A DNA stretch of 51,987 nucleotides, from contig DRPG01000318.1 in the NCBI GenBank assembly GCA_011376105.1, positions 1 to 51,987 on the forward strand. The letters are read 5' to 3'. Source of the DNA: Deltaproteobacteria bacterium. Its GTDB lineage: Bacteria > Myxococcota_A > UBA796 > GCA-2862545. The position numbers and the translations under genes were made by a program. Below are positions 298 to 34,988 of the stretch, one piece after another; position 1 is the stretch's first letter; the number at the start of each line of letters is the position of its first letter. A model generated the notes under the pieces. The model was not told the DNA's origin and searched no databases. It saw nothing but the letters and a program-made list of their open reading frames with translations.

Positions 298-2876
298 CAC
301 ACCCGGCCGGCGCCTCCACGACCCCAGCGGAGCCGCCGCTGCCGCTGGCCGAGCTGGATCGAGCGCTGCGGCCCGTCCGTCGGGTGATCCGATACGCGAT
401 GATGCCCGGCGCCCGCGCCCGCTTCGTCGAGCGCAACACCGCACGTCACCTCGACGGGGCCCTGGCCCTGGATCTGCCCAGGGCCCTGCGCGAGGATCTG
501 GCGTCGGTCGCCGCCGGGCTCGCGGGCTTCGACGCTGCCCCCGAGGTCGAGCAGCGCACCCGGCTGTCCGAGGTCTACGCCGGCCTGGCCCGGGTGGACG
601 CCGTCGCGGGCCTGCCGCTGCCGATGAGGCGGCTCAAGCCCATCTCCAAGCCGATCCAGCGCGACGTGCCCGAGCCGCCTGAGCCCAGCGCGCCCGCTGC
701 GTCCACGGCGCCCGCCAAGGACCCACCGCCGGCCGGAGACGATGCACCGCCGAGGCCCCCCGACGACGCCTTGTCTCCCCCGGACGAGCCCGGGGGAGAC
801 AAGGCCCCGGAGCCCGTCCAGATCCGACCGTCGACGCCGCTGAGCGAGCTCGATCCAGCCCTGGGCGAGGCCCTGGCCCAGCACGGGCTGACCACGGTCG
901 CAGATCTGCTCGGGCTCCGCCCCGCGGCCTGGGAGACCCTCGAGATCCATGGCGCCGGGCGGCCCCCGCCGCAGCGGCGGGTGGCCCTGGGGGGGCGCCT
1001 GAGCGGTGGGTGGTGGGTCCTGTCCCCCTCGGGAGAGCGTCGTCGCCGTTCTCGCCTGGTGGGTGCCGCCGCGGTCCAGATCCAGTGGGCATCCGAGGCG
1101 GTGGCGCCCTGGCTGGAGCTCGATCGGAAGGTGGTGATCGTCGGCGACGTGCTCAGCGATGGCCTCGTCGCTGAGGCTGAGATCGTGGTGGGGGAGGGCT
1201 CGGTGGTGCACCTGCCGCGCTACGAGCTGCAGGAGATCGAAGATCGTGCGCTGCGGGCCCTGGTGACGGTGTGCTCGGAGAGGCTGGGGCCAGTGCGGGA
1301 TCCCGTCTCGAGCGAGCTGCTCAAGCGCCTCTCGCTCCCACCCCGGGGCGACGCCCTGATCGGCGTGCACCGCCGGGATCCACAGGCCCGCTGCCGCCTT
1401 GCCTTCGACGAGGCGCTGTTGGTCCAGCTCGCCGGGGCCCTGCCCCGGGCCCGCGGGCCCCGGAAGCGGGGGCTGCCTCACCATGTGGTGCATGGCTTCG
1501 CTGGCCACATCAGCCAGACCCTGGGGCTGATCCTCGACGATGATCAGCAGCGCTGCTTCGAGGACGTGAAGCGGGAGCTGCGCAGGGCGGTGCCCATGCG
1601 CCGGGTGATCACCGGAGAGGTCGGGGCGGGCAAGGGTGCCGTCGCCCTGATGGCCACCGCCACGGTGGTGGAGGGGCGCGCCCAGGTGCTGGTGCTGGCC
1701 GACGACGACGCCGGGGCCGCGACACGGTTCCTGCACAGCGAGCAGGTCCTCCGGGAGGGGGGCATGATCTGCAGGCTGGTGCAGTCGCCCCCCACCGGAT
1801 CCCAGCGTGACGCGATCCGGCGCGGGGAGGTCCACGTCGTCTTTGGCAGCCTGGAGCTGCTCGAGCACGAGCTGGCGTTCCGTCGGCTGGGGCTGGTGGT
1901 GGCGATCGAGCGAGAGCGGTGGGGGCACGCGAGCCAACTCCACGCCCAACTCCCCGCTCCGCTCCCCGATCTGCTCGTGCTGACCTCGGTGCCCGTCGGC
2001 CCCCGCCTGTTGATGACGGCGTATGCCGATCACGACGTGAGCGTGCTGACGGATCGCCTGCGCAGGCCCGCGAGCATCACCCTGTGCCACGCCGATCAGC
2101 GCGCGGAGGCCTACGCAAAGCTCCGGCGGGTGGTGGAGCAGGGGCACCAGGCCATCGTGGTGTTCCCGATGGTCCGGGGCAAGGATCCCCTCGACGCCAG
2201 GGAGGCCCTGCGCATGGTGCGTGCCCTCGAGGCGGACGCCCTGGCGGGGATGTCGGTGGGCCTGTTCCATGGCTCGATGCCCGCCGACGAGCGCCAACGG
2301 GTGTACGAGGACTTCTCCCACCGTCGCCTCCAGGTGCTGGTCTGCACGACCCGGATCGAGGAGGGCCCCAAACCCCCAGGGGTCGCGGTGTTGGTGGTCG
2401 AGCAGGCCGAGTCGGTGGATGCCTGGCGGCTACATCGCCTGATCGGCTTCCTCTCCCGCAGCGCCGTGCCCTCGGAGGCGATCCTCGTCTCCGGGGATCT
2501 GGCCTCGGAGGAGGCCAAGGCCCGGCTGCTGCAGCTGCAGGAGGCCCCGAGCGGCACGGCCCTGACCGAGGCCCTGGTGGCGCAGCGCGGGGTGGAGCAG
2601 GTGGTCGCGGACGGCGTCCCACCGCTGCCCCAGCTGACCTGGCTGGATCTCGATCAGGATCTGAGCTTGGTCCTGAGCGCCCGGGACGAAGCCGCTCGCC
2701 TGTTGGGAGCTGATCCCGGCCTCCGCCGGGGCGCCCACGCCGAGATCGCGCGGGAGCTGTTCGAGCGCTGGGAGGAGCTGTGGCCCGAGGCGCCCCGATC
2801 CTGGGCGCCGCCCCGGCTGGAGGAGCCAGGGGAGCCAGGGCGCAAGCGTCGCCGCCGCCGTCGCCGTCGCCGGTAG
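294..2876 (+). CDS. RecG-like superfamily-2 helicase homologue with degenerate catalytic motifs and a poly-Arg C-terminus
   Basis: ATG at 294 overlaps the greA stop (ATGA). It is collinear with RecG: an OB/wedge-like region, then two RecA-like lobes (...VVFPMVRGKD..., GLFHGSMPADERQRVYEDFSHRRLQVLVCTTRIEEG). Motif I reads GEVGAGKG, the motif II position reads IERER, and the motif VI position reads HRLIGFLSRS. The protein ends RKRRRRRRRRR. Confidence 0.7.
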   Translation: MTHPAGASTTPAEPPLPLAELDRALRPVRRVIRYAMMPGARARFVERNTARHLDGALALDLPRALREDLASVAAGLAGFDAAPEVEQRTRLSEVYAGLARVDAVAGLPLPMRRLKPISKPIQRDVPEPPEPSAPAASTAPAKDPPPAGDDAPPRPPDDALSPPDEPGGDKAPEPVQIRPSTPLSELDPALGEALAQHGLTTVADLLGLRPAAWETLEIHGAGRPPPQRRVALGGRLSGGWWVLSPSGERRRRSRLVGAAAVQIQWASEAVAPWLELDRKVVIVGDVLSDGLVAEAEIVVGEGSVVHLPRYELQEIEDRALRALVTVCSERLGPVRDPVSSELLKRLSLPPRGDALIGVHRRDPQARCRLAFDEALLVQLAGALPRARGPRKRGLPHHVVHGFAGHISQTLGLILDDDQQRCFEDVKRELRRAVPMRRVITGEVGAGKGAVALMATATVVEGRAQVLVLADDDAGAATRFLHSEQVLREGGMICRLVQSPPTGSQRDAIRRGEVHVVFGSLELLEHELAFRRLGLVVAIERERWGHASQLHAQLPAPLPDLLVLTSVPVGPRLLMTAYADHDVSVLTDRLRRPASITLCHADQRAEAYAKLRRVVEQGHQAIVVFPMVRGKDPLDAREALRMVRALEADALAGMSVGLFHGSMPADERQRVYEDFSHRRLQVLVCTTRIEEGPKPPGVAVLVVEQAESVDAWRLHRLIGFLSRSAVPSEAILVSGDLASEEAKARLLQLQEAPSGTALTEALVAQRGVEQVVADGVPPLPQLTWLDLDQDLSLVLSARDEAARLLGADPGLRRGAHAEIARELFERWEELWPEAPRSWAPPRLEEPGEPGRKRRRRRRRRR

Positions 2877-2912
2877 CCGGCTGCCAGCCGCCGGGGCGGG
2901 GCCGCGACCCGC

Positions 2913-4070
2913 TCACATCTGGAGCACCAGGCCCGCCACGAAGAGGAAGATCAACAACATGAACGCCAGCAGGCCGATGACGTTGCCCGCGGTGGGGCCC
3001 CGCTGAAGCTCGAAGACCACGCTGGCCCGCTCCCCCCGCTCGGTCTCGATGGTGACCACGCCGGCGGTGGCCTCGTCGGTCAGGGCGCCCCGGTCGAGGC
3101 GGACCAGGATCTGCTGCTCTGCTGCGGAGGGATCGAGCTGATCAGGGGTGACGATCAGCCAGGGCACGTCTGCCTCGGCGCGGCCTCCCATCGATCCTGT
3201 GCCGCCGTTGCGGAGCTGGATCGTGGCCTCAGCCGGATCCGCCCGGAGGGACAGGGTGCGCACAGGATCCCCGAGCAGCTCCAGCCGGGAGACCCCACCG
3301 GGGGCCTCCAGCCGGGGCTGGGTGGGGCGCACCGTCTCCCGGGTGCGGGCGGGGGGGCCGGTGCGGGCGGTGGTGAGATCGTAGTGTCGGCGGGACTCCT
3401 CGTTCGACAGCACCTCCTTTGCGAGGGCGAGGCGCTCTCGCTCAGGATCGCCGGGCTGGAGCTCGGCGATCCGGTGCCCGTAGGCGTCCACCACCTCGAC
3501 GGGGGTGGCCCGGGGATCGACCCCGAGGAGCTTGTAGAGATCCTGGCTGCTCGGTGCGTGGCTCAGGGGATCTCCCTCCAGCGAGATCTGCATCTCGTCG
3601 GCGATGCGCTCCAGCACCTCCCGGAAGGTCTCCTCGCTGACTCCGAGCGAGAGCGCGTTGTGGCGGAGGTAGGCCTCCTGCTGCGCCCCGAGCCCGCCCC
3701 CGGCGAGGACACCCCGCACGGTCATCTCCAGGACAGGCAGGTGCTCGGACTCCGTGCGCCGTCGGACGTCTCGTAGGTAGGCCGGGCCGTCCTCGAGCAC
3801 CGTGCTGAGGCTGGAGAAGTGCTTGATGAGGAACAGCGCCTCGCGGCGGTACTTCGGGTTGGCCTGCATCCCCTGCATAAACTTCCTGCGGGACTTGAGC
3901 TTGGCTCGAGCCTCTGCAGGATCGACCTCCTCGGTGAGGCCAAGGTAGGTGAGCAGGTGGGGGGCTCCCACCAGCTCACAGAACGCTGCGGCGTTGTCGA
4001 GGTCGCGTAGTTCCATCTGTCGCCTGGCCGGGGACTCGTGTTTGTATCGAGCCTGGGGCGCATCGGTCAA
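2913..4070 (-). CDS. Tail-anchored membrane protein with a J-domain-like segment lacking the HPD motif
   Basis: DLYKLLGVDPRATPVEVVDAYGHRIAELQPGDPERERLALAKEVLSNEESRRHYD follows the J-domain helix II/III pattern, but the HPD position reads QPGD. A beta-rich middle region follows. The extreme C-terminus is one hydrophobic helix (NVIGLLAFMLLIFLFVAGLVLQM). Last gene of the Hsp70 cluster. Confidence 0.6.
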   Translation of the reverse strand: MTDAPQARYKHESPARRQMELRDLDNAAAFCELVGAPHLLTYLGLTEEVDPAEARAKLKSRRKFMQGMQANPKYRREALFLIKHFSSLSTVLEDGPAYLRDVRRRTESEHLPVLEMTVRGVLAGGGLGAQQEAYLRHNALSLGVSEETFREVLERIADEMQISLEGDPLSHAPSSQDLYKLLGVDPRATPVEVVDAYGHRIAELQPGDPERERLALAKEVLSNEESRRHYDLTTARTGPPARTRETVRPTQPRLEAPGGVSRLELLGDPVRTLSLRADPAEATIQLRNGGTGSMGGRAEADVPWLIVTPDQLDPSAAEQQILVRLDRGALTDEATAGVVTIETERGERASVVFELQRGPTAGNVIGLLAFMLLIFLFVAGLVLQM

Positions 4071-4199
4071 CGATCCAGATCTCCCCGGTGGAGACGCCGA
4101 GCCAACGATCGTGGCTCCGGGTGGCTCGTGGGGTCTGGATGGAGTGTGCGGTGGCTCGGGATCTCCGGCGCGCTCCCGCTCAGACCATGCGAGCTTGTA

Positions 4200-4236
4200 G
4201 TGGTCTAGCTGTTCGGGGCCGCGGTGGTCTAGCTGT
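4200..4236. repeat. Perfect 13-bp direct repeat GTGGTCTAGCTGT (4200-4212 and 4224-4236), 24-bp period, in the gap between the lidless Hsp70 gene and the J-like gene
   Basis: Read directly from the sequence. It contains the CTAG tetranucleotide and lies 130-166 nt upstream of the J-like start codon (4070). Confidence 0.5.
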
Positions 4237-4278
4237 CTGAAGCGGTGGGGCCGGCTCGCCGGCTGCGTCGGGGGGGGA

Positions 4279-5958
4279 TCAGTCGACCACCATCCGGCTG
4301 GTGCGGCCCCGGGCGAGGGCGACCTCCTCAGCGGTCATGCCGCCCTGGAAGCGGATGTCGATCCCCTCTCGACCTCCGGTCTCCACGTCGATCACCTGGA
4401 CCTTGAGGATCTGGTTGACGCCGTAGCTGTAGACCACATCGATCCGGGTGCCCCGTGGACGCGGCGGCAGCCCGGTGAGCTCGACCTGGCCGATGACCGT
4501 GACCTCGTCCCGGAAGCTGCCGGAGCCCTCGGTGACCTCGATCCGCACCGCGGTCATGTTCTCGAAGGCGTAGGCGAACTGGTGCTTGATCTCGTGGGGC
4601 AGCTTGGTGCCCTCGGGGATCAGCTCAAACACACGCTCCTGACGGGACTTGTTCAGGACGATGATCCCCAGCGGGTGGGTGGTGGCGTCCTCGATGGTGA
4701 CGTCGGGGAGCCCTCCGGTGGCACCATCGCCCACCGCGTCCTGGGCGACGTGGCCGCCGTAGGCCAGGCCGATCACCGCCCCCCGGGGGCTGGGCCTGGG
4801 CTCCACGGGGGGCTTGGGCCTAGGCTTGCGGAGCTCCTTGGCGCGATCCACCATCGCCCGGCGCTTCTCCCGCAGGGCGGGGTGATCGGGGCGGTGGCGG
4901 AACACACCCGCCAGCGACGCACCCAGGGCGACGCACTCCTCGGGGTTCACGTCCTCGGCGGGCTCCCGACCTGAGAGGTTGGTGAGCATCCTCCGGATCA
5001 TCGGCATCCGGGTGGAGCCCCCGACAAGCAAGACATCGTCGAGCTGATCCCAGGTCAGGCCGGCCTTCTCGAGCACGATGTTCGAGGTATCCTCGCACTG
5101 TTGCACCAGATCGGCGGTGATCTGCTCGAACAGATCGCGGGTGACCTTGACCGCCAGCCGCTTGCCCCGGTAATTCACCGGGACCACCGCACGTTCCTTG
5201 GTGGACAGGCAGATCTTGGCGTGCAGGCAGCGCTCATACAGCTCCTGGTAGGGCGCTGCGTCGTCGCGGGGATCGAGCTGGTACTTCTCGAAGAACTGCT
5301 CAGCGACGTAGTTGAGCAGCCGATCGTCCCAGTCTTTGCCGCCCAGCTCAGCGTTGCCGTCGCTGGCGATGGTCGACAGCTTGGTGCCCCGGATCTCCAT
5401 CACGGTCACGTCGAAGGTGCCGCCTCCGAGATCGAGCACCAGCAGCTTGCGCTGGCCCCCGATCCGATCGAGGCCATAGGCGATGGCAGCGGCGGTGGGC
5501 TCGTTGATGATCGACAGCACGTTGAGCCCGGCGATGGTGCCGGCCTCGGCGGTGGCGCCGCGCTGGGCTGAGTGGAAGTAGGCGGGCACGGTGATCACCG
5601 CGTCGACCACCGGACGCCCCAGCAGCTCCTCGGCGTCTTCCTTGAGCTTGCGCAGGATCAGGGCCGAGATCTCCTGCGGGGTGTAGGAGTGCCCGAAGAA
5701 CTCCAGCGTGAAGTCCTCCTCCCCCATGTGGCGCTTGATGAAGCGGACCACGTTCTCAGGATCGATGACCACCATCTTGACGGCCTCTTCCCCGACCACG
5801 CAGACGTTGCTGCCGTAGAAGTGGACCACCGACGGGGTCGTGGCGAAGCCCTCCCCGTTGGGCACGATCTCGGGCTTGCCGTGGTTGTTGACCAGCGCCA
5901 TCGCTGAGAAGGTGGTGCCCAGATCGATGCCGAGGACGATCTGGCTGTCATCCGACAT
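4279..5958 (-). CDS. Hsp70-family ATPase, short form without helical lid (NBD plus beta-sandwich substrate-binding domain only)
   Basis: Hsp70 signatures present: [56 protein letters not shown] Pro/Arg-rich insert ([20 protein letters not shown]) precedes the SBD-beta. The protein ends right after SBD-beta, at 559 aa. Confidence 0.9.
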
Positions 5959-5960
5959 GA

Positions 5961-6467
5961 TCAGGCCTTCCTGCCACGGTACCGCAGGATGATGACCTCC
6001 TCGGGGCGGAGCGGCTTCTGAGCCCGGGAGAAGCCCCGCTTGAGGACCTGGGAGATGCTGTAGTCTGCCTGCTCGTCGTCGGTCTCGTCGACCTTGACCG
6101 CCCGGTGCAGGGTGCGATCGAACCGCTCACACGCCTCGACGGGCACGACGTCGCGCCGGTACAGCACCTCGAGGAACTCGTCGATGAGGTACTGGAAGCT
6201 GTCGGCGATCACGTCCGGGGACATCTCCTGCTTGATCAGGCTCTCCTGGAACCAGTTCATCGAGTCGTAGAACAACAGCAGGTCGAGCAGCAGGGGCTTC
6301 TCTGCCTGAAAGAGGAAGTCCTCCTTGTACTGGCGCAGCTCTTCGTAGAGCTGATCGAACGCTTTCTCCCGGACCTTGTCGTTGTTCAGACGATCGTTGA
6401 CCATCTTCTGCATCTCGCCTACTTCGTGGGCGAGCCTGCGCATGGCGTCGGTGGTGGATTCGGTCAC
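5961..6467 (-). CDS. Minimal GrpE-like nucleotide-exchange factor
   Basis: The C-terminal pattern ...VVPVEACERFDRTLHRAVKVDETDD...ISQVLKRGF..QKPLRPEEVIIL resembles the GrpE beta-domain (FDP..H.A....V...GY....LRPA.V.V). The start is uncertain: GTG at 6467 with GAGG 9 nt upstream, or ATG at 6443. The track's 6602 start would overlap the upstream gene by 119 nt and its N-terminus looks out-of-frame. The stop lies 2 nt before the next Hsp70 start. Confidence 0.6.
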   Translation of the reverse strand: MTESTTDAMRRLAHEVGEMQKMVNDRLNNDKVREKAFDQLYEELRQYKEDFLFQAEKPLLLDLLLFYDSMNWFQESLIKQEMSPDVIADSFQYLIDEFLEVLYRRDVVPVEACERFDRTLHRAVKVDETDDEQADYSISQVLKRGFSRAQKPLRPEEVIILRYRGRKA

Positions 6468-6483
6468 TACAACGAGCCTCGGA

Positions 6484-8490
6484 TCAGTCTGACGGGGCAC
6501 CGAGTTCGGTGGCCAGGTTGATGAAGGTGCCCTCGAGCTCGAGGGATTCATTGCAGAAGTGGAAGTCGCTCGGCCCGCTCGCCAGCGAGGAGAGGAACCC
6601 ACGCTGGACCTGATCGCCGACCCCGACGGTGATCACCCGGGCGCCCATCGCCCTCAGCTCGTGGACCTGCTTGAGCGTGGCCTCTGGATCGTCGGGGTGC
6701 CCATCGGTCATCACGACGAAGACCCGCTGGATGCCGGCCTTGGGCTTGAGCAGGTTGCGGGCGTCGTACAGGCCCTCCGACATGGGGGTGGAGCCGATGG
6801 GGGTCAGCGAGTCGATCGCCCACCGGAGCCGATCGAGGTTAGCGGTGAGGGTGGACTTGACGCCCCCAGGGAAGGCGACGACCGCCACCTGGCGGTTGGC
6901 CGACTCCAGCGTGTGGTGCACGAACGACAGCGCAGCCTTCTTGGCGTTCTCGATGTTGGCGCCGTACATCGAGCCCGAGCAGTCCACCACCAAGACCACC
7001 CACATCGGCGCGCGGTTGTTGGCGAGATCCTCCAGCGTGACGTGGCCTCCGGCGAGGCGGTGGGGCAGGATCTGGCCGGTCTCCAGATCCATGGCCTCGA
7101 CCTCGACGATCCCGTTGCTGTTGTAGCGGTAGGTGACCGCCAGCCTCGCCTGGCCTGCGGGCCTCGGCGCGATCCCGTAGAACTCGAAGTGCCCCAGCAC
7201 CGAGCACTTCAGGGGATCGGGATCCTCGCCCTGGACCAGCCACAGATCGATGGTGGCCTGGCCGTCGTAGGTGGTGGAGTAGTCGTCGCGGGTCTTCTCA
7301 GCGGGGATCCGGGTGTTCTTGCTGATGATCTTCGAGTTGTGCAGCTGCTTGTCGCGATAGACCACCATCCCGAGGGAGTGGGAGGTGACGTCGTGGGTCC
7401 GGATGTCGACCGGCGAGGCCTCCCCCGACAGCTCAGCGGCCTCGATGGCGGCGGTGAGCGCAGCACCCAGGGCCACGGCCTCGTCGGGGTTGATGTCGGT
7501 GGCGGGGGGCTTGCCAAAGGTGTTGTGCAGCATCTCCCGGACCATCGGCATCCGGGTGGAGCCTCCGGCGAGCAACACCACGTCGATGCTCTCGAAGCTG
7601 GCGCTGGCCTCCTGGACCACCGAGCGGGTCAGCACCTCGGTGCGCGACAGCAGATCCTCGGTGAGCTCCTCGAAGGTCTCCCGGCTGATGGCCAGCCGCA
7701 TGACCTTGTCGCCATAGTCGTGGAAGATGTTGACCTTGGGCCTGCGGGTGAGGCTGATCTTCGCCGACACACACTTCTGGCGTAGATCATGGTAGCTCGA
7801 CAGCTCCTCGAGGGGATCGACGCCGTGCTTCTCCTTGAATGCGGCGGCGACGTGGTGGATCAGACGATCGTCCCAGTCCTTGCCCCCCAGCAGGTGATCG
7901 CCGTCGGTGGCGATGACGTTGATCTCCTTGTCGGCGATGTCGACCAGGGTCACGTCGAAGGTGCCACCCCCGAGATCGAAGACCAGCACCCGGAGGTTCT
8001 GGCCCGCGTTGTTCAGCCCATAGGCGAAGGCTGCGGCGGTGGGCTCGTTGATGAGCTTGAGCACCTTCAGCCCAGCCAGCTCACCCGCCCGCAGGGTGGC
8101 GCGGCGCTGGATGTCGTTGAAGTAGGCAGGCACGGTGATCACGGCCTGATCGATCCGCTGGCCCAGCCTCAGCTCGGCGTCACCCTTGAGCTTCTGCAGG
8201 ATGATCGCAGAGAGCTGCTCGGGGTTGTAGTCCTTGCCCCGGAAGGTGAACCGGTATGAGTCGTCACCCATGTGGCGCTTGACGAACTCCACCACCTGCT
8301 CGGGGTGGGCCACCGCAGCATGCTTGGCGTAGCTGCCCACTGAGATGACGTCGTCTTCAAACAGCAGGACGCTCGGTGTGATCCGATCGCCCTCCGCGTT
8401 GGGCAGAACCTCAGGGACACCGTGCTGGTTGACGTATGCGATGGCCGAGAAGGTGGTCCCGAGGTCGATCCCGACCGCACCGATTGCCAT
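6484..8490 (-). CDS. Hsp70-family ATPase fused to a C-terminal von Willebrand factor A (vWA) domain
   Basis: ATG at 8490 is preceded by AGGAGG. NBD motifs: [58 protein letters not shown]-beta follows. The last 175 aa or so read VVLVVDCSGSM...IGSTPMSEGL...VVMTDGHPDD, i.e. MIDAS D-x-S-x-S...T...D. Confidence 0.85.
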   Translation of the reverse strand: MAIGAVGIDLGTTFSAIAYVNQHGVPEVLPNAEGDRITPSVLLFEDDVISVGSYAKHAAVAHPEQVVEFVKRHMGDDSYRFTFRGKDYNPEQLSAIILQKLKGDAELRLGQRIDQAVITVPAYFNDIQRRATLRAGELAGLKVLKLINEPTAAAFAYGLNNAGQNLRVLVFDLGGGTFDVTLVDIADKEINVIATDGDHLLGGKDWDDRLIHHVAAAFKEKHGVDPLEELSSYHDLRQKCVSAKISLTRRPKVNIFHDYGDKVMRLAISRETFEELTEDLLSRTEVLTRSVVQEASASFESIDVVLLAGGSTRMPMVREMLHNTFGKPPATDINPDEAVALGAALTAAIEAAELSGEASPVDIRTHDVTSHSLGMVVYRDKQLHNSKIISKNTRIPAEKTRDDYSTTYDGQATIDLWLVQGEDPDPLKCSVLGHFEFYGIAPRPAGQARLAVTYRYNSNGIVEVEAMDLETGQILPHRLAGGHVTLEDLANNRAPMWVVLVVDCSGSMYGANIENAKKAALSFVHHTLESANRQVAVVAFPGGVKSTLTANLDRLRWAIDSLTPIGSTPMSEGLYDARNLLKPKAGIQRVFVVMTDGHPDDPEATLKQVHELRAMGARVITVGVGDQVQRGFLSSLASGPSDFHFCNESLELEGTFINLATELGAPSD

Positions 8491-8501
8491 GTAGGGTGCC
8501 T

Positions 8502-8546
8502 CCTGTGGGCCACGGACTTCGGAGTGGTGAGCGAAGGGCCCACAGG
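8502..8546 (-). promoter_or_regulatory. Leader hairpin (or palindromic operator) abutting the Shine-Dalgarno of the Hsp70-vWA gene
   Basis: A 10-bp perfect inverted repeat: CCTGTGGGCC (8502-8511) and GGCCCACAGG (8537-8546). There is an inner 5-bp stem (8517-8521 with 8532-8536). In the mRNA the 3' arm ends in ...CAGG, which forms the first half of the AGGAGG SD (8499-8504). Confidence 0.35.
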
Positions 8547-8609
8547 TCCGACGGGGTGGGGTGGAGTATATCGGAGGCGCGTGCCACAACAAACCCGAGG
8601 GTAGCGCCG

Positions 8610-9203
8610 ATGCACGAGCTGATCTTGGCCTCCACCAGCCCCTATCGGCGCCGCATGCTGAAAGATGCAGGACTACTGGTCAGGAGCGAGGCGCCGGGAG
8701 TCGACGAAGATGCACCCGACGAGATGACGGATGTGGTCGCCCTCGTGGAGCACCTGGCGTTGCGCAAGGCGCGCGCGGTCTCCGATCGGTTTCCCGGGGC
8801 GTGGGTGATCGGCGCAGATCAGCTCGCCCATGATCGCGATCGTCCAGGTGAGGCGATCGGCAAGCCCCCTGATCCCAGCGTCCACCTGGAGCGGCTGGCG
8901 GCGATGCGGGGTCGGTCCCACGTGTTGGTCACCGGCTTCGCGGTGATCACCCCCGGGCAGGTGCACGTCTCCCACGAGCAGACGGTGATGCATGTGCGCG
9001 CCGATCTGACGGACGAGGAGCTGGCCGCCTATGTCGCGACGGGGGAGGGCAGCGGCTGTGCCGCAGGCTATGCGGTGGAGGGCCGGGGCGCGTTCCTGTT
9101 CGATCGGATCGAAGGAGACTTCTTCAACGTCATGGGGTTGCCCCTGCTGACGATCCTCGGGGTGCTGCGAGAGCTGGGGTGGAGGTTCGGCGATGGGCTC
9201 TGA
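8610..9203 (+). CDS. maf: Maf-like nucleoside triphosphate pyrophosphatase
   Basis: [17 protein letters not shown]...PGVDE...VIGADQ...GKP...[39 protein letters not shown] is the typical Maf family pattern. The ATG at 8610 was chosen over the long upstream extension in the track. Confidence 0.85.
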   Translation: [197 protein letters not shown]

Positions 9204-10047
9204 TCCCGCCAGGGAGCTCGCAGAGTTGGTGGCCGACGCCCGGGCCCTGGCCGAAGACGCCCGGGATCGGGGGGTGCTACACGAGGCCCTCGACGCCTCT
9301 CCGGAGGTCACCGAGGCCCCCGGGGCCCCGCCGGCGGGGGCCCGGGCCTCCACCGCAGCCTCCGGGGCCACGCCCGCCCCCCCAGCGCGCTCGACACCAC
9401 AGACCAAGGCGCCCGCCCCCCGGCCGGCCCATGCGGGGTGGTCCGCGCTGGCCTCGTCGGCGCGGGACGCGGAGCTGCCCGCCCCGCTGCGGCTCGAGAG
9501 GGTCCGCGGGGAGCTGGGGGACTGCAGGCGCTGTGCCCTGGCCCGGGGGCGAAAACAGATCGTGTTTGGGGTCGGTAGCCCGCAGGCGGATCTCGTGGTG
9601 ATCGGGGAAGCCCCTGGGTACCACGAAGATCAGCAGGGGGAGCCGTTCGTGGGCCCCGCCGGCCAGATGCTCGATCGCATGCTCGAGAACGTGCTCGGGC
9701 TGGCACGATCCCAGGTCTACATCCTCAACATGGTCAAGTGCCGGCCCCCCCGGAACCGAAACCCGCTGCCCGAGGAGGTGTCGTCCTGTCGACCCTTCCT
9801 CGACGGCCAGCTCTCGGTGATCGCCCCGAGGGTGATGTTGGTGCTCGGCAGCGTCGCGTTCCGGGCCCTGTTCGACACTCAGCAGGGCATCAAGCGCAAC
9901 CGTGGGCGGTGGCGCGAGTACCGCGGGGTGCCGACGATGTCCACCTTCCACCCGGCCTACCTGCTGCGGCAGCCTCAGGACAAGCGGCTGACCTTCGAGG
10001 ATCTCCAGGTGCTGAAGCGCCGCTACGAGGAGCTGACCGGGGGCTAA
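9193..10047 (+). CDS. Uracil-DNA glycosylase, family 4, with a low-complexity N-terminal extension
   Basis: C..C.L...R...VFG.G...ADLVVIGEAPGYHEDQQGEPFVGPAGQMLDRML, KCRPP.NR.P and HPAYLLR are family-4 UDG motifs. The start overlaps the maf stop. Confidence 0.85.
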   Translation: MGSDPARELAELVADARALAEDARDRGVLHEALDASPEVTEAPGAPPAGARASTAASGATPAPPARSTPQTKAPAPRPAHAGWSALASSARDAELPAPLRLERVRGELGDCRRCALARGRKQIVFGVGSPQADLVVIGEAPGYHEDQQGEPFVGPAGQMLDRMLENVLGLARSQVYILNMVKCRPPRNRNPLPEEVSSCRPFLDGQLSVIAPRVMLVLGSVAFRALFDTQQGIKRNRGRWREYRGVPTMSTFHPAYLLRQPQDKRLTFEDLQVLKRRYEELTGG

Positions 10048-10164: not shown

Positions 10165-11715
10165 CTACTCCTTGGGGAGCTTCAGCCCACCGAGGAGCTC
10201 GCCGAGGGTGCCAAAGCCCCCGCCGCCGCTCTGCTGAGCCTGGTGGACCCGCCAGGAGCGCTGGGCCTCCCGGGTGTCTTCGCGCATCGATAGCGTGACC
10301 CTGCGTGGATCGTCGGCGGTGATCCGGGCGGTGATCGGACGGCCCCGGCGGAACCGCTGGGCGAGCACCGTGCCGGCGGGCAGATCCACCTCTCCGGCGG
10401 GCAGCCAGCCCGAGCGGCCATCCTCAAGCTGGATCACCACCCCCCCTGGCTTGACCTCGACCACCGTGCCCGACACCTCGATCGCGCCTGGTGTGATCGA
10501 CTCAGCACCGGCCTCCACCGGAGCCAGCGACAGCCTGCGGCGCTCGTGATCGATCTGCATCAGCCGCACGTCGAGGCGGGAGCCCTTCTCGGGCAGCCCG
10601 CCGGGGAGCTTCGAGACGTGGACCAACCCCTCGAGGCCCGGAGCGAGCTGGACGAAGGCGCCAAAGTCGGTGACGTTGGTCACCTCCCCGCTGTAGACGC
10701 CGCCCTCGACGAAGCCGCTGCCGACCGCGCCCCAGGGATCGTCCTCCAGGGCCTTGGCGGACAGGGTGAGCTTGCGCTGCTCCCGATCGGCCCGGATCAC
10801 CGCGACCTCGACGGCCTGGCCAGCCCGGACGACCTGGTGGGGATCGTCGGTGTGGCCCCAGCCGATCTCGCTGCGGGGGACCAGGCCCTCGACCCCGCCG
10901 ATGTCGACGAAGAAGCCAAAGGGCTGGACCGAGGTGACGACGCCCCGGTGCTGCTGATCGATCGCCAGGGTGCCCCACAGGATCTCGGCCTTGCGGGCGG
11001 CCTCCTCCTCCTGCAGGGCCCGGCGGGACAGCACGATCCGATCGCCGGCCTCCAGGACCCGGAACTCCAGCACCTGGCCGACGAACCCATCTGGATCCAC
11101 TCCCCGCAGGCGGGTCATCTGGGACGCGGGGCAGAAGGCCCGGATCGGGCCCACCCGCACGTCGAACCCGCCGGGGTTTCGGCCCTCGACCCGGCCCTCG
11201 ATCGGCAGCCCAGACTCAGCAGCCTCAGCGAGGTGCTCGGCGGCGGCGTGGCCGGTGAGCTTCACCGTGAGGATCGTGCCGTTCTCACCCGCGCGCACCA
11301 CGAAGGCCTCGACCGTGTCCCCCGCGGTGGCGTCGGGCAACTCGCTGCGATCCAGCAGGCCCTCGGACTTGCCCCCCAGATCGACGAAGACCGTGTCCTG
11401 GCCCACCCGGGTGACGGTTCCCTCGATCCTGGCGCCGGGCTCGAGGCGGACGCCGCCGGACGAGCCCTCCATCAGGGCAGCCAGCTCCTCGGAGCTCATC
11501 TGAGCCAGGGCCTCGAGATCCGAGAGATCCAGCCGGCCAGCAGGGGTCTCGGAGGTGGTCGGCTCCGCCGGGGCCGGGGGCTGGGTCGAGGCTGCCTGGA
11601 CGAGCGGTGCCCCGGGCTCGGGTTGGGGCTCGGGGCGACGGGGGGCACCGGCGGGGACGCGCCGCGGTGGCTTGGGCGTGGCCATGATCTCTCGGACTCC
11701 TGGCGCTCGGGCCAT
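10165..11715 (-). CDS. RNA-binding protein with five S1 domains (ribosomal protein S1-like)
   Basis: There are five repeats of the S1 OB-fold pattern (G..V.G.V..V...G.FV.L....EGL...SE...). The N-terminus is Pro/Ala-rich. The start may instead be the ATG at 11685. It lies 42 nt downstream of tgt on the same strand. Confidence 0.8.
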   Translation of the reverse strand: MARAPGVREIMATPKPPRRVPAGAPRRPEPQPEPGAPLVQAASTQPPAPAEPTTSETPAGRLDLSDLEALAQMSSEELAALMEGSSGGVRLEPGARIEGTVTRVGQDTVFVDLGGKSEGLLDRSELPDATAGDTVEAFVVRAGENGTILTVKLTGHAAAEHLAEAAESGLPIEGRVEGRNPGGFDVRVGPIRAFCPASQMTRLRGVDPDGFVGQVLEFRVLEAGDRIVLSRRALQEEEAARKAEILWGTLAIDQQHRGVVTSVQPFGFFVDIGGVEGLVPRSEIGWGHTDDPHQVVRAGQAVEVAVIRADREQRKLTLSAKALEDDPWGAVGSGFVEGGVYSGEVTNVTDFGAFVQLAPGLEGLVHVSKLPGGLPEKGSRLDVRLMQIDHERRRLSLAPVEAGAESITPGAIEVSGTVVEVKPGGVVIQLEDGRSGWLPAGEVDLPAGTVLAQRFRRGRPITARITADDPRRVTLSMREDTREAQRSWRVHQAQQSGGGGFGTLGELLGGLKLPKE

Positions 11716-11757
11716 CCCCGGTGAGGATGGGAGCGCGCTCGTTGGGTAGGGAGACCC

Positions 11758-12891
11758 CTATTCGACCACCGGCATGGTCGCCAACGCCGCCTCGGCCCGG
11801 AGCCCGCGCAGCTGCTGCGGATCGTCCACCTCGATCGCGGACCGCAGCCTGGCCACCAGGCGCTGGTAGTAGGTCAGGTTGTGGAGGGTCAACAGCCGCC
11901 CCCCCAACCTCTCTCCGGCCCGGATCAGGTGGGAGAGGTAGGCCCGGCTGAAGCCGGTGCAGGCGGGACAGGGGCAGGCCGGATCGAGGGGCCGCCGATC
12001 CTCGCGGTAGCGACCGTTGCGGAGGTTGCGCCGCCCCTCGCTGGTGTAGCCCTGGCCGTGGCGACCCGCCCGGGTCGGCAGCACGCAGTCGAACAGATCG
12101 ATCCCGGCGAGGACAGCCTCGACGATGTCGATCGGGTGGCCGACCCCCATCAGGTAGCGCACCCGATCGGTGGGCAGCAGCGAGGCGCTGTAGCGGGCGA
12201 ACGCGATCAGATCCTCGCGATCCTCTCCGACGGAGAGCCCCCCCACGGCGTATCCGTCGAGATCCCGATGGATCAGCTGCTCAGCGTGATCACGCCGGAG
12301 ATCCTCGTGCAGCCCTCCCTGGAGGATCCCGAACAGAGCGGTCTGATCCGGGCGGCGACGTGCAGCGACGCAGCGATCGAGCCAGCGCAGGGTGCGCGCC
12401 GTGCTCTGCTGCGCCCGAGCCCGGGTGGCGGGGTGCTCGAGGCACTCGTCGAACGCCATCGCGATGTCGACGCCGAGTGCCTCCTGGACCTCGATCGCGA
12501 CCTCGGGGGTCAGGGTGCGGTACTGGCCGTCTTCGGGGGAGCAGATCCGCACGCCCTCCTCGGAGACCACGGCCCGATCCCGCATCGAGAACACCTGATA
12601 GCCCCCCGAGTCAGTGAGGATCGGGCCGTCCCAGGACATGAACCGGTGCAGCCCCCCGAGGCCGCGCACCACCTCGTGCCCCGGGCGGACCCACAGGTGG
12701 TAGGTGTTCGCCAGCACCAGGCGGCTGCCGGATCGCGCCAGCTCGTCCGGCGCGATCCCCCGGACGGTGCCCCGGGTACCCACCGGCATGAACGCAGGCG
12801 TGGGGACGGCGCCGTGGGGGAGCTGGAGCGTGCCCGCGCGGGCGTCGCCGCAGGTGGCCTCGAGCTCAAACGAGCAACATCGCGTCGCCAT
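11758..12891 (-). CDS. tgt: Queuine tRNA-ribosyltransferase (tRNA-guanine transglycosylase)
   Basis: FELEATCGDARAGTLQLPHGAVPTPAFMPVGT..., TDSGGYQVFS, and the Zn site C.C..C...SRAYL.HL. The ATG at 12891 fits the family N-terminus and overlaps the queA 3' end by 26 nt. Confidence 0.9.
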   Translation of the reverse strand: MATRCCSFELEATCGDARAGTLQLPHGAVPTPAFMPVGTRGTVRGIAPDELARSGSRLVLANTYHLWVRPGHEVVRGLGGLHRFMSWDGPILTDSGGYQVFSMRDRAVVSEEGVRICSPEDGQYRTLTPEVAIEVQEALGVDIAMAFDECLEHPATRARAQQSTARTLRWLDRCVAARRRPDQTALFGILQGGLHEDLRRDHAEQLIHRDLDGYAVGGLSVGEDREDLIAFARYSASLLPTDRVRYLMGVGHPIDIVEAVLAGIDLFDCVLPTRAGRHGQGYTSEGRRNLRNGRYREDRRPLDPACPCPACTGFSRAYLSHLIRAGERLGGRLLTLHNLTYYQRLVARLRSAIEVDDPQQLRGLRAEAALATMPVVE

Positions 12892-20113: not shown

Positions 20114-22765
20114 GTGAGCGCAACGGGTCAGGAGTCCACGGCTGGGCGCAGGTTCCATATCCACTCCTGTCTCGGCAGGGGTGGCTTCGGAGAGGTGTAT
20201 CGGGCCACCATGTCGAGCTCGGGGGGGGTCCGCACCGAGGTGGCGGTCAAGATCCTCCGGGAAGACATCGATCCCGGGAGCGAGGCGGTCAAGCGGCTGC
20301 GCGATGAGGGGCGACTGCTCGGCGCCCTGCGGCATCCCGCGATCCTGAGGGTCCACGATCTGGTGCTGCTCGAGGGGCGGGTCGCCCTGATCACCGAGTT
20401 CATCGAGGGCGAAGATCTCGATCGCTGCATCGCTGCTCACCCCCCGATCCCGCTGCGGGCGGTGGTCGCGGTGGTGGGGGAGGTCGCCGCGGCGCTGGAT
20501 GCGGCCTGGAGCTCCTCCACCGACAGCGGCGATCCGATCCACCTGGTGCACCGCGACATCAAGCCAGCCAACATCCGGATCGGGCGCCACGGCGAGGTCA
20601 AGCTGCTCGACTTCGGCATCGCCCGGGCCACCAACGTGGCCCGCGAAGCCCACACCGGCAGCAACGCCATGATGGGCAGCTACCTGTACATGGCGCCCGA
20701 GCGCTTCCACAACGAGGCGGTGGAGCCCCCCTCGGATCTCTACGCCCTGGGCTGTGTGCTGTTCGAGGGCCTCGCCCGGCGGCGCTTCTTCGAGGGCATG
20801 AACCTCAAGCAGATCTACGGCACGATGATGTCGGCCCGGAAGTTCGACGCCCACCTCGAGGCACGCCTCAAGCTGCTGGGGGATGGCCCCCCCCCCGAGG
20901 TCCTCGAGCTGCTCCGGGCGCTGCTGCACCCCGAGGCGTCGGCGCGTCCCACCGCCTCCGAGGCCGCCGCACGCTGCGAAGATCTGGTCGAAGAGCTCGA
21001 GGGTACCTCGCTGAAGCGCTGGGCGCGGCGGCGGGAGTGGCCTCCGCCCCAGATGGTCCACGGCAGCCTCGATGGGCGGGATCTCGAGGCCCAGGCCTTC
21101 GTGAACCTCGAGGAGACCCGCCCCCCAACCCCGGCCCCGGTCAGCACCCTGCCCAAGCTCAGCCCCGAGTCGCTGCCGCCGATCAACGTCGTGGCCCTGA
21201 CCTCCCCCGGCGGGCATACACCGCTGGATGCTCCCCATCCCAAGCGCTTGTTCTCGTCCAGCTCCGACGCCGTGCCTGAGGGCCTCAAGATCGACGTCCC
21301 CGAGCTGGAGATCCCGGTGCTGCCCCAGTCGGTGCTCGAGGCCAGCGACGAGGCCGAGGAGGCCGAGGAGGCCGAGGAGGCCGAGGAGGCCGAGGAGCCA
21401 CTGCTCCCCGGCCTCGGAGCCCCTCAGCGGGCGCTGCCCTCCGAGCCCCCCACGTTGCCCGAGTTGCCCGAGCGCCGGCCTGACGCTGAGGCCCCTAGAG
21501 CGCTCGAGGCGACCGCGCTCCTCTACGACGAGGCGCCCCCAGTCCAGGCCCTCGCCCCCCAGGACCCCCTCCAGGGTGATCCCCTCCAGGACGGGCTCCC
21601 CCGGGACGGGCTCCCCCGGGGCCAGGGCGCCGGGCCCACGGACGCGGCGAGCCCCGAGATGTTGGCCGGCCCGCCCCAGCCTCCCCCGGAGGTGATCCCC
21701 CGGAGCGAGGTGCCCTCGCTGCCCCGCCGGGAGGTCCCGACGATCCCTCCAGCTCCACCGGCCTGGGATGGCGACGCGACCTCGACCCTCGAGCCGCTGA
21801 CGCCCCGCTCCGAGGTGCCCCCCGTGGCTCCGATCGTCCCGCTGTCCCAGCGGGAGACCATCCCTCCGGTGGTCCGCAGGGAAGACACGGGGGAGTACGA
21901 TCTCCGGGACTTCCCGACCGCAAGCCACTACTTCCCGATCGACGACGACGAGACCCCGGATCCCATCCCGGAGGTGTTCGCCAGGGCCTCACTGCCCGAT
22001 CCCGAGCTCGAGGCTGCCCTGTCGGAGCTCAGCCGCCGACGCCAGCGGCGCTCCTCGCTGGCCTGGCTCCTGGGGGGGGTGGTGGTGACCACGGTGGTCG
22101 CTGTCCCGATCCTCTGGGCCGCGGTGGGGCAGGAGGCCCTGGAGGCGCTGGCGCCCGGCCTCACCAGCGCTCGCCTCGGGGAGGGGCTGGAGGAGCTCCG
22201 GGGCACGATCCCAGCGCCCTCGCCCTCGCCCTCGCCCTCGCCCTCGCCCTCGCCCTCTCGACCCGTGGCGCCTCCGGCCCCCGGTGGAGCTGTGTCCGCC
22301 GATGCTGCACCTGGAGGCGGCGGGCCCAGCGTCCCCGCGCCAGAGGGCGGATCCTCTGAGGATGAAGCGCCGGAGCCCCCCCCGGGCGCCGGAGGTGAGG
22401 ACGCCGGGGGCGAAGGCGCTGGAGGAGAGAGCACCGGGGCTGGAGGCGAGGGCGAGACCATCGAACCCCCCGGGCCGGAGCAGGCTCCGGCCTCCGAGCC
22501 CCGCGTGAGCCTCCGGGAGCGGGGCTGGCAGGCGGTGGATCGCTCGAACCATGCAGACGCCATCGCGCTGTTCGAGGAGGCCATCGCGATCGATGGCTCC
22601 GACGCCGATGCGTGGTACGGCAAGGGCTACGCCCTGCTAGAGCTGGATCGCAAGGCTGAGGCCACCACGGCCCTGTGTCGGTCTCTGGCGTACAACGACG
22701 GCAACAAGGAGATCGAGCGCGAGGTCAACGGGATCATGGATCACCACGGCATCGACTGCCCCTGA
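20114..22765 (+). CDS. Hanks-type Ser/Thr protein kinase with long disordered linker, one TM helix and C-terminal TPR
   Basis: GRGGFGEVYRA, VAVKIL, HRDIKPANI, DFGIAR and YMAPE are all intact. The linker is E/A/P/S-rich. TM helix: LAWLLGGVVVTTVVAVPILWAAV. The C-terminal TPR-like segment is ADAWYGKGYALLELDRKAEA. Confidence 0.85.
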   Translation: MSATGQESTAGRRFHIHSCLGRGGFGEVYRATMSSSGGVRTEVAVKILREDIDPGSEAVKRLRDEGRLLGALRHPAILRVHDLVLLEGRVALITEFIEGEDLDRCIAAHPPIPLRAVVAVVGEVAAALDAAWSSSTDSGDPIHLVHRDIKPANIRIGRHGEVKLLDFGIARATNVAREAHTGSNAMMGSYLYMAPERFHNEAVEPPSDLYALGCVLFEGLARRRFFEGMNLKQIYGTMMSARKFDAHLEARLKLLGDGPPPEVLELLRALLHPEASARPTASEAAARCEDLVEELEGTSLKRWARRREWPPPQMVHGSLDGRDLEAQAFVNLEETRPPTPAPVSTLPKLSPESLPPINVVALTSPGGHTPLDAPHPKRLFSSSSDAVPEGLKIDVPELEIPVLPQSVLEASDEAEEAEEAEEAEEAEEPLLPGLGAPQRALPSEPPTLPELPERRPDAEAPRALEATALLYDEAPPVQALAPQDPLQGDPLQDGLPRDGLPRGQGAGPTDAASPEMLAGPPQPPPEVIPRSEVPSLPRREVPTIPPAPPAWDGDATSTLEPLTPRSEVPPVAPIVPLSQRETIPPVVRREDTGEYDLRDFPTASHYFPIDDDETPDPIPEVFARASLPDPELEAALSELSRRRQRRSSLAWLLGGVVVTTVVAVPILWAAVGQEALEALAPGLTSARLGEGLEELRGTIPAPSPSPSPSPSPSPSRPVAPPAPGGAVSADAAPGGGGPSVPAPEGGSSEDEAPEPPPGAGGEDAGGEGAGGESTGAGGEGETIEPPGPEQAPASEPRVSLRERGWQAVDRSNHADAIALFEEAIAIDGSDADAWYGKGYALLELDRKAEATTALCRSLAYNDGNKEIEREVNGIMDHHGIDCP
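21350..21394. repeat. 9-bp tandem repeat GAGGCCGAG x5 encoding (EAE)5 in the kinase linker
   Basis: Read directly from the sequence. Confidence 0.85.
22216..22257. repeat. Hexanucleotide repeat (GCCCTC)7 encoding (PS)n in the kinase extracytoplasmic linker
   Basis: Read directly from the sequence. It has the same unit and orientation as the intergenic array at 26701-26782. Confidence 0.85.
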
Positions 22766-24523: not shown

Positions 24524-24575
24524 CGCGCCAGGGCACGTCGGGTCTATCGCTCGACATGGACAGGGAGATCGGTCA

Positions 24576-34900: not shown

Positions 34901-34988
34901 CCCCTCTCGTCCTCGATCTCTGTTGGGTGTGGACCGTGGCTTGTGGTCGCGCTGGATCATGCCACACCAGGGGGCCCCAGACCACGCG

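Follow-up and report, generated by a model that had tools for sequence, protein, structure and literature searches.

The DNA analyzed here, hereafter the window, is the whole 51,987-nucleotide (nt) stretch of contig DRPG01000318.1 (assembly GCA_011376105.1), from a deltaproteobacterial genome placed in the Myxococcota_A by GTDB, and our subject is a module of four minus-strand genes encoding two Hsp70 proteins and their putative partners. The first gene (6484..8490, 668 amino acids [aa]) encodes Hsp70-vWA, which consists of a nucleotide-binding domain (NBD), the β-part of the substrate-binding domain (SBD-beta), a stub of lid helix A, and a vWA domain where the lid would be. It is followed by a GrpE homologue (5961..6467, 168 aa) with a GTG start 16 nt past the Hsp70-vWA stop, a second, lidless Hsp70 (4279..5958, 559 aa) whose ATG lies 2 nt past the GrpE stop, and a tail-anchored J-domain adaptor without the His-Pro-Asp (HPD) motif (2913..4016, 367 aa). 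The four reading frames are picked out by third-position GC in a region of ∼65 to 71% G+C. An initial annotation had described four closely packed genes on one strand, and the shared strand, the domain assignments, which pass statistical tests, and the two short gaps all hold. The third gap, given there as 208 nt, is 262 nt, as the true start of the J-like gene is ATG 4016 and not TTG 4070 according to both the public gene call and an alignment with 70 homologues.

Hsp70-vWA matches the Pfam HSP70 profile with an E value of 2.6e-135 and aligns with Mycobacterium tuberculosis DnaK across residues 4 to 482, but the profile match stops at position 490 of 599, and the protein therefore lacks a lid. 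Residues 498 to 647 match Pfam VWA (E 5e-18, 66 bits against a cutoff of 23.8) as well as VWA_2 and VWA_3, and the full domain spans residues 498 to 668 (6487..6999, minus strand). Its metal-ion-dependent adhesion site (MIDAS) is intact, with DCSGS (6970-6984, residues 503 to 507), the T of GSTP (6784-6795), and the D of TDGHP (6694-6708), all on the minus strand. The tail alone matches the solved vWA domains of PTMP1, TRAP, and BatB, and 117 of 120 close Hsp70-vWA homologues keep the DxSxS motif, as do 18 of 19 distant ones. Judged from its sequence, the 175-aa tail is thus a vWA domain with complete metal-site residues, in agreement with the initial annotation.

The second Hsp70 matches Pfam HSP70 (E 1.9e-120) in two separate stretches and terminates ∼30 residues past SBD-beta. 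At the junction of its NBD and SBD-beta lies a Pro/Arg-rich insert of ∼67 aa (4705..4905, minus strand; residues 352 to 418) that is probably disordered; it faces a gap in alignments with both Hsp70-vWA and DnaK, and the inserts of orthologues vary in length and are likewise Pro/Arg rich. We note that this protein ends in R-M-V-V-D (window positions 4279-4300), which recalls the C-terminal EEVD of eukaryotes to which TPR co-chaperones bind. Among the orthologues in L001 to L034, an M-x-V-[DE] C terminus is kept in the near clade and is replaced by A-x-I-[HTN] in the far clade, and given this restricted conservation we dropped a role as a TPR ligand and record the tail as an observation.

Both Hsp70s are identical to Escherichia coli DnaK at all six catalytic residues (D8, K70, E171, D194, T199, and D201), and their SBD-beta pockets are retained with mostly conservative substitutions. 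Other positions differ in ways that bear on J-protein action: DnaK R167, which contacts the Asp of HPD, is K in Hsp70-vWA and S in the second Hsp70, and the DnaK linker 389-VLLL-392 is replaced by IRTH and VTIE, respectively. Neither protein has the helical lid, and in Hsp70-vWA the MIDAS-bearing domain follows directly past SBD-beta. Three segments of the DnaK NBD (77-99, ∼209-212, and ∼289-294) are missing from both, the last of which is the "GrpE signature" loop of Brehmer et al. (PMC8215388). The two proteins share 39 to 44% identity with each other, 36 to 41% with E. coli DnaK, and 36% with E. coli HscC. Their TIGR02350 (DnaK) scores of 441 and 412 bits compare with a cutoff of 822, and both fall far under the NCBIfam equivalog cutoffs for DnaK, HscA, and YegD. 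The earlier description of the pair as paralogous is only loosely borne out by these identities, and a neighbor-joining NBD tree addressing the monophyly of the position-1 and position-3 Hsp70s was star-like, with bootstrap values of 2 to 66%.

The protein encoded between them matches Pfam GrpE (PF01025) with an E value of 9.3e-14 and 51.9 bits against a cutoff of 25.8. The match covers profile positions 8 to 163 of 165, which indicates a complete GrpE domain lacking only the N-terminal tail, and the label "mini-GrpE" given to it at first was an overstatement. The protein falls far below all NCBIfam GrpE equivalog cutoffs, and a phmmer comparison with solved GrpE structures gave no match.

The fourth protein was modeled with AlphaFold2 at a mean predicted local distance difference test (pLDDT) score of 90.7 from a 71-sequence alignment; its 74 homologues all come from metagenomes. 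The initial annotation had called it J-like on the strength of a helix pair, and we find a genuine J domain at residues 157 to 218 (3363..3548, minus strand), a four-helix unit with the loop sequence QPGD in place of HPD. The family profile matches a J-domain alignment in hhalign with 98.3% probability (E 1.3e-14), and Foldseek with the model of residues 1 to 226 returned almost only J domains, with target TM-scores of up to 0.78 at E values of 0.04 or weaker. In Pfam the window protein scores 25 bits, under the J-domain cutoff of 27.8, and longer relatives pass it with 35 to 37 bits. Just 2 of the 62 family members recovered from genomes have HPD in the J loop, and a large sub-clade conserves RYRWAR[NST]LKD at the HPD site, which argues that the interface between the J domain and its Hsp70 has been rewired rather than having decayed. 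The two keepers of HPD are the divergent long-form adaptors of L023 (= P0073), with KRHPDPT, and L034, with ERHPDAQ, and their retention of the motif suggests that the ancestor of the adaptor had a canonical J domain.

N-terminal to the J domain lies a helical domain (residues 1 to 145; 3582..4016, minus strand) in which conservation across the family is highest, with MQGMQxNPKY, P94, E97, and G107 invariant and pLDDT values of 92 to 98 apart from one block at 87 to 88. This domain may comprise a second degenerate J-like unit and a DjlA/TerB-like helical hairpin. The first 76 residues possibly represent a second J domain: they are collinear with J domains across 58 columns at an hhalign probability of 6%, and the N terminus gives a marginal collinear match (E 0.013 to 0.04) to the J region of L092_X, a protein from a GAP1-N2 locus described below. 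Following the J domain, a nearly invariant TGPPARxR motif (residues 219 to 226; 3339..3362, minus strand), which in relatives is followed by ATAPPVR, opens a disordered linker with pLDDT below 50 at residues 224 to 238. This motif could be a docking peptide for an Hsp70 or for the vWA domain. The linker leads into a cytoplasmic PapD/MSP/ASH-like β-sandwich (residues 243 to 339; 3000..3290, minus strand), identified by Foldseek, with the HYDIN PapD-like domain, Caf1M, FaeE, VAP/MSP, and CEP192 as top matches and a weak Pfam match to BACON_2. The chain ends in a transmembrane (TM) helix that forms a tail anchor (residues 343 to 366; 2919..2990, minus strand) with pLDDT above 90. The domain scan and the model contain no Gly/Phe-rich (G/F) region, zinc finger, or client-binding C-terminal domain (CTD), consistent with the architecture originally outlined for this protein.

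Taken across the module, three elements of the relay by which a J protein acts on Hsp70 have changed together: HPD is lost, R167 is replaced, and the hydrophobic VLLL linker is replaced. A spare or stress-specific general chaperone set, that is, an extra DnaK/GrpE/DnaJ complement for bulk folding, would account for the full retention of the ATPase residues, the conservative SBD-beta pocket, and the co-encoded GrpE and J-domain protein, and myxobacteria are known to multiply hsp70 genes (PMC8265645). The same explanation has to contend with the missing lids, the missing HPD, the altered linker and R167, a J-like protein without the G/F region, zinc finger, or client-binding CTD, scores well under the DnaK, DnaJ, and GrpE equivalog cutoffs, and a vWA fusion that has no role in the known foldase cycle. 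The noncanonical Hsp70s of Myxococcus xanthus, moreover, fail to complement E. coli dnaK (PMC8265645). We regard a general folding role as very unlikely and side with the initial annotation in separating this module from a housekeeping dnaK operon. The analogy with grpS-sglK that accompanied it does not stand, as M. xanthus SglK, a DnaK of the canonical PRK00290 type, is able to complement E. coli dnaK (PMC8265645).

To place the module among related genomes we used two exact peptide patterns from the SBD-vWA region of the close family against one genome per GTDB species, which matched 130 genomes; locus counts below cover the 80 listed, and the 55 loci with at least 1.5 kb downstream are termed informative. 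All 80 are uncultured metagenome-assembled genomes (MAGs); the ones bearing a usable taxon label, which come from lakes, seawater, and activated sludge, are assigned to Myxococcota or "Deltaproteobacteria," the "MYXO" MAGs being GTDB Myxococcota. Ten records (L007, L009, L020, L021, L023, L050, L052, L072, L076, and L078) carry this ∼70% GC myxobacterial-type locus under labels such as "Klebsiella pneumoniae," "Bifidobacterium breve," "Cognaticolwellia sp.," and "uncultured Enterobacteriaceae," and the species names on these MAG records are evidently placeholders or wrong. Of these loci 73 are complete at the module, and each of the 73 has the Hsp70-vWA/GrpE/Hsp70 triad; in every untruncated locus the GrpE gene sits between both Hsp70 genes. 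As a separate observation, L009 has ∼1.3 kb inserted between Hsp70-vWA and GrpE (10907-12191), and its Hsp70b stop abuts a convergent helicase-like gene.

Hsp70-vWA changes slowly and is much better conserved than the J-like protein. Its first 120 database clusters show 67 to 86% identity along the full length, and within the same loci Hsp70-vWA is 65 to 91% identical, compared with 33 to 72% for S1 and 38 to 64% for Maf, a pattern that indicates strong purifying selection and slower evolution than that of S1 and maf. The module has the behavior of a core gene set passed on by vertical inheritance in this uncultured lineage of Myxococcota, and in the window its neighbors are maf, UDG, rpsA, tgt, queA, and secDF. 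The closest of these is the nucleotide pyrophosphatase gene maf (8613..9203, plus strand; Pfam Maf 1.7e-46), a conserved neighbor that is maybe linked to the module; on the other side, 37 nt separate the J-like stop from the end, at 2876, of a convergent helicase-like gene. maf adjoins the module in 73 of the 80 loci and is co-oriented with it in 19. In the window the two are divergent, and in L051 the maf stop (gene at 8244-8900) overlaps the Hsp70-vWA start by 4 nt, so that maf may be the first gene of the operon there. All six genes of L051, from maf to TPR, overlap or lie 3 to 6 nt apart, and this packing is the strongest indirect evidence here that the genes probably form an operon.

Downstream of the triad the close relatives are usually more elaborate than the window. 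A J-like gene follows the second Hsp70 in 50 of the 55 informative loci; 41 of these 50 genes encode an extra periplasmic domain past the TM helix, with weak matches to PEGA and to the AgmX/PglI C-terminal domain (myxo_SS_tail, TonB-C-like), and in 44 of the 50 the next gene encodes a TPR protein fused to Zincin_1 (PF06262, 3e-22) with an intact HEVGH (HExxH) motif. The window has the tail anchor only and no TPR-peptidase gene, and the 262-nt gap ahead of its adaptor gene is a widened one. We take its four-gene, tail-anchored form as a reduced derivative of an ancestral five-gene module whose adaptor crossed the membrane and carried a periplasmic domain.

The composition of the longer loci raises a more specific version of the idea of a dedicated switch, not exclusive of it, in which the module would serve the envelope, division, or surface motility of these Myxococcota, the periplasmic domain coupling the ATPases to the wall or outer membrane and maf coupling them to septation. 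The long-form adaptors with PEGA-like and myxo_SS_tail domains invite it, as the latter is present in GltG too and the TonB-C-like tails of GltG and GltJ couple in this manner in gliding. The adjacency of maf, translationally overlapped in one sub-clade, and the strong conservation of a core-genomic locus fit as well, and deletion of each of four noncanonical M. xanthus hsp70 genes lowered sporulation and oxidative resistance (PMC8265645). The domain matches are nonetheless under curated cutoffs (21 to 29 bits against 40 for myxo_SS_tail), the window and the relatives nearest to it no longer have the periplasmic domain, the proximity of maf may reflect nothing more than synteny, genes for motility or division are missing from the surroundings, and the distant modules occur in unrelated contexts. 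We consider this version, as stated, rather unlikely.

Beyond the close family, an exhaustive HMMER search with the SBD-vWA half against 1.84 billion cluster representatives returned 38 with E values under 1e-30. The best 150 matches included dozens of full-length proteins of 660 to 720 aa, collinear and 28 to 45% identical, and all ten distant homologues that were checked combine HSP70 and VWA without a lid. A profile search with the distant SBD-vWA sequences gave 31 matches, one to a fragment labeled Crocosphaera watsonii and the rest to Nitrospirota, Desantisbacteria, and unlabeled MAGs; the labeled distant carriers include Desulfobacterales, Nitrospirota, Desantisbacteria, and the Crocosphaera fragment.

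Several distant loci repeat the gene order of the window. L088 encodes Hsp70-vWA, GrpE, Hsp70, and a bitopic membrane protein, and L089 the same four followed by a TPR protein; in L091 the triad precedes a 1,000-aa protein with a PapD/HYDIN-like Ig domain and PEGA, so that its position-4 protein shares the β-sandwich type of the adaptor; and L094 reads Rhomboid, Hsp70-vWA, GrpE, Hsp70, and a DnaJ(weak)+PEGA protein. The position-4 proteins of L088 and L089 were rejected as homologues of the adaptor (hhalign probability of only 3 to 4%), and they share its architecture of an N-terminal J-like start, a TM helix, and an extracytoplasmic β domain. Just upstream on the same strand, both loci (498-5449 and 2262-6781, respectively) encode a separate vWA protein of 620 to 660 aa and a fused ABC-ATPase/FtsX (MacB-like) transporter, which may be part of a larger conserved unit. 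Two further loci are associated with GTPase systems. L093 keeps the order Hsp70-vWA, GrpE, and second Hsp70 with two extra genes and a DZR/Fn3 protein like that of L092, beside DO-GTPase2 and GAP1-N2/GAP1-M. In L092 the order is rearranged: next to DO-GTPase1/2 and GAP1-N2/GAP1-M lie the second Hsp70 and a ∼1,000-aa DZR/Fn3 protein whose J domain is partial and HPD-less, and GrpE is outside the view because the contig runs out at Hsp70-vWA. In L095 Hsp70-vWA stands alone.

The recurrence of one order at 28 to 45% Hsp70-vWA identity in the unrelated contexts of L088, L089, L091, and L094 bears on whether the genes work together at all. The four could be neighbors by inherited synteny only, with no joint work, given that the flanking housekeeping genes of the close family are syntenic too and that a 262-nt gap precedes the J-like gene in the window, with some relatives lacking this gene altogether. 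On the other hand, the order is kept among such divergent proteins in unrelated surroundings, the genes stand 2 to 16 nt apart in the window and overlap or stand 3 to 6 nt apart in L051, and an Hsp70, an exchange factor, and a J domain follow the logic of one machine; we find pure synteny scarcely credible. The co-conservation check proposed with the initial annotation was thus borne out, the genes recurring together in unrelated genomic contexts. These loci point to a widespread module family with the fixed order Hsp70-vWA, GrpE, second lidless Hsp70, membrane J-like adaptor, and usually a TPR-HExxH peptidase.

The GTPase-linked loci connect the module to a published prediction. Within a "second theme" of GAP1-N2 DO-GTPase systems, Kaur et al. 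(2020, PMC7159879, section 29) described HSP70 and GrpE, sometimes with a second HSP70, together with an FNIII-repeat protein fused to DnaJ/TPR, and with PEGA-type domains beyond the TM helix. The theme is a computational prediction, mainly from actinobacteria and firmicutes (Kaur, Burroughs, Iyer and Aravind, eLife 2020, PMC7159879), and our literature search found no experimental follow-up on the GAP1-N2 systems. The window module could accordingly be a stripped-down relative of these systems with an anti-phage or abortive-infection function, in which the Hsp70s would assemble a membrane effector complex, or set its threshold, after an invader is sensed. Homologues of Hsp70-vWA beside DO-GTPase and GAP1-N2/GAP1-M genes in L092 and L093, the fit of the published description to the parts found here, and a TPR-peptidase partner that suits the proteolytic-release idea of that work (PMC7159879) all speak for such a conflict function.

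The genomic setting of the window does not. Pfam searches of 24 window open reading frames (ORFs), among them every gene that flanks the module, and of the genes called in L001 to L006 found no DO-GTPase, and they found no GAP1 (GAP1-N2, GAP1-M, or GAP1-C) or effector domain in the scanned window ORFs or close relatives; 4 of the 6 informative distant contexts (L088, L089, L091, and L094) are free of GTPases as well. The module occupies the same position among maf, UDG, rpsA, tgt, queA, and secDF in all 80 listed genomes, and its proteins evolve more slowly than their housekeeping neighbors, the opposite of what conflict systems do. PADLOC-DB 2.0 gave no significant match, the sole one being that of the NBD to PDC-M61B (14 bits, E 0.003), and the conflict role of GAP1-N2 is itself only predicted. 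A defense function is, in our estimation, decidedly unlikely here, and because of the core-genome position, the slow evolution, and the maf linkage we favor a cellular role (envelope or division) over defense in this lineage.

The reading that we prefer, with moderate confidence, is that the module is a dedicated non-housekeeping Hsp70 machine, a clamp or switch, driven by ATP, whose target is its own membrane adaptor or partner, and not a general folding system. Because both Hsp70s keep all hydrolysis residues and a private GrpE is retained, we expect an ATP/ADP cycle with a long-lived ADP state. We hypothesize that the clamp would be gated by ATP and would target a dedicated partner located at the inner membrane. 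In this model the adaptor would recruit the Hsp70s via its J-like domain or domains and may present its Pro/Arg-rich TGPPARxR segment to SBD-beta as an internal pseudo-substrate. An acidic residue, either of the adaptor or of some third protein, may be held by the MIDAS of the vWA "lid," and GrpE would reset the cycle; a partner-capturing role for the vWA domain, suggested in the initial annotation, is plausible from its sequence. In the ancestral form the adaptor would span the membrane and reach the wall or outer membrane via its PEGA/TonB-C-like domain, and the co-expressed TPR-zincin peptidase would add a proteolytic step.

A number of observations weigh against this reading. The J-like and TPR-peptidase genes are absent past the triad in 5 of 55 close relatives; L009, which is among the nearest to the window, lacks the adaptor, and the adaptor of L007 is truncated to 300 aa; the triad must therefore have some partner besides the adaptor. 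It is often kept yet dispensable, and the triad is the invariant core; the membrane tether postulated in the initial annotation is therefore present and not indispensable. Both Hsp70s lack the "GrpE signature" loop, a deletion that they share with HscA and HscC, which are GrpE independent (PMC8215388), and this complicates the picture of how GrpE would engage the pair. The flanking maf, UDG, and S1 genes are also syntenic in the close family, with the locus at the same position in all 80 genomes, and co-conservation there is therefore partly plain vertical inheritance; the argument from co-conservation rests on the six distant contexts. A promoter and terminator scan of 2500-9000 called neither for the module, using a sigma-70-like consensus that is uninformative in DNA of 65 to 73% GC, and with the 262-nt gap in the window the adaptor gene may or may not be co-transcribed with the triad.

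The sole terminator-like site in that scan lies inside a gene on the wrong strand, and an Rfam scan of 2500-9300 gave zero matches. Upstream of the module, the divergent intergenic region between Hsp70-vWA and maf (8491..8612) is, as read from the sequence, a likely promoter region, and an AGGAGG ribosome-binding site stands 7 nt ahead of the Hsp70-vWA ATG at 8490. The 262-nt gap itself contains a perfect 13-nt direct repeat, GTGGTCTAGCTGT, in two copies 24 nt apart (window 4200-4236), and an imperfect 18-nt inverted repeat (4090-4107 and 4149-4166), which could mark a regulator site or an internal promoter region.

Elsewhere in the window, three large consecutive minus-strand ORFs (30674-41173) encode proteins of 1,469, 635, and 1,431 aa, the first with an AAA_16 (STAND-like) ATPase domain and the other two without a Pfam match at E 1e-4. 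Several eukaryotic-like Ser/Thr kinases, among which one bears C-terminal TPRs, and a protein with a lamin-tail domain (LTD), as is typical of Myxococcota genomes, are encoded at 20114-22765 (plus), 22796-24655 (minus), 45907-47763 (minus), and 47783-49267 (minus).

If the dedicated-switch reading is correct, an Hsp70 cycle can do without the canonical J trigger and be rewired to serve one dedicated partner. That lid, HPD, linker, and R167 were lost in concert, and that a vWA domain stands in as a "lid," should surprise Hsp70 specialists. Only DnaK, HscA, and HscC are recognized as prokaryotic Hsp70 types (PMC8215388), and the remaining DnaK derivatives have been called unexplored "dark matter" (PMC13580251). 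The locus described here defines one such family, with a repeatable gene grammar and a testable mechanism. We tentatively raise the possibility, without holding it to be probable, that it represents a fourth class of prokaryotic Hsp70 machine, distinct in mechanism from these three, with a metal-dependent MIDAS clamp for a lid, a different J-Hsp70 interface in place of the HPD-R167-linker trigger, and a second Hsp70 on a long flexible tether. Such a machine would be a self-contained, ATP-gated trans-envelope switch that some lineages, like this one, domesticated for a core cellular function and others built into GTPase-based conflict systems.

Among characterized systems, HscC and DjlC of E. 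coli offer the closest parallel, a specialized Hsp70 of ∼556 aa served by dedicated J proteins, DjlC and DjlB, that are anchored in the membrane at their C termini. HscC also shares the NBD deletions relative to DnaK (at ∼76-101, near D211, and in the GrpE-signature loop; PMC8215388), but the first of these occurs in many nonproteobacterial DnaKs as well (PMC8215388), and common deletions are therefore no proof of exclusive common ancestry. In E. coli, DjlB and DjlC serve HscC as functional J-domain co-chaperones, and the lid of HscC is shortened but present (Kluck 2002, cited in PMC8215388); HscC is also thought to be GrpE independent (PMC8215388), whereas the window module has no lid, no HPD, and a dedicated GrpE. 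Orthology with HscC is ruled out, the Hsp70s being no closer to it (36% identity) than to DnaK (36 to 41%), and the adaptor aligns with DjlC over the J domain only, at 5.6% probability, with nothing significant beyond. HscC/DjlC is thus the nearest characterized analogue and is not orthologous.

The RAC-Ssb system of yeast likewise joins two Hsp70s, the atypical Ssz1 and Ssb, with one J protein, Zuo1. One of its Hsp70s has a truncated, lidless SBD and acts as a structural partner, its SBD-beta holding a segment of the J protein, and by analogy this is the logic that we propose for the TGPPARxR segment. The likeness is an analogy only, and RAC-Ssb differs in being eukaryotic and ribosome bound, in the functional HPD of Zuo1, and in having no vWA, GrpE, or membrane anchor. 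MoxR-vWA pairs (RavA-ViaA, CbbQ-CbbO, NorQ-NorD, and CoxD-CoxE) combine an ATPase with a MIDAS-vWA protein that is thought to grip an acidic residue of the target, which ATP turnover then remodels. In the window the ATPase is an actin-fold Hsp70 and not AAA+, the vWA domain is fused in cis in the place of the lid, and there is no MoxR gene at the locus. DjlA shows weak collinear similarity in its TerB-like region and J domain to adaptor residues ∼40 to 190 (NCBIfam PRK09430, E 5e-6 to 6e-5; 22 to 26 bits against a cutoff of 162). Both proteins are membrane anchored, but the anchor of DjlA is N-terminal, its HPD is functional, and its partner is DnaK.

A close likeness in composition is to the GAP1-N2 theme, which has the same parts list (Hsp70, GrpE, a second Hsp70, and a J/TPR β-sandwich protein, the TPR being present only in relatives of the window) and the same membrane association and PEGA-type extracytoplasmic domains, and whose loci L092 and L093 encode homologues of the window Hsp70-vWA. 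The initial annotation knew of no function described for this architecture, but a theme of HSP70, GrpE, HSP70, and J/TPR-FNIII protein had already been reported computationally (PMC7159879). A vWA fusion is not mentioned in the text of PMC7159879, and in contrast to the GAP1-N2 systems the window locus is core-genomic and slowly evolving. The architecture has thus been partly known from computation since 2020, and what is new is this lineage and its context. If the inference holds, the GTPase-linked "conflict" versions would also be put in perspective: we see the chaperone module as a unit in its own right, recruited by some GTPase systems and present as a highly conserved core set in a large uncultured lineage of Myxococcota.

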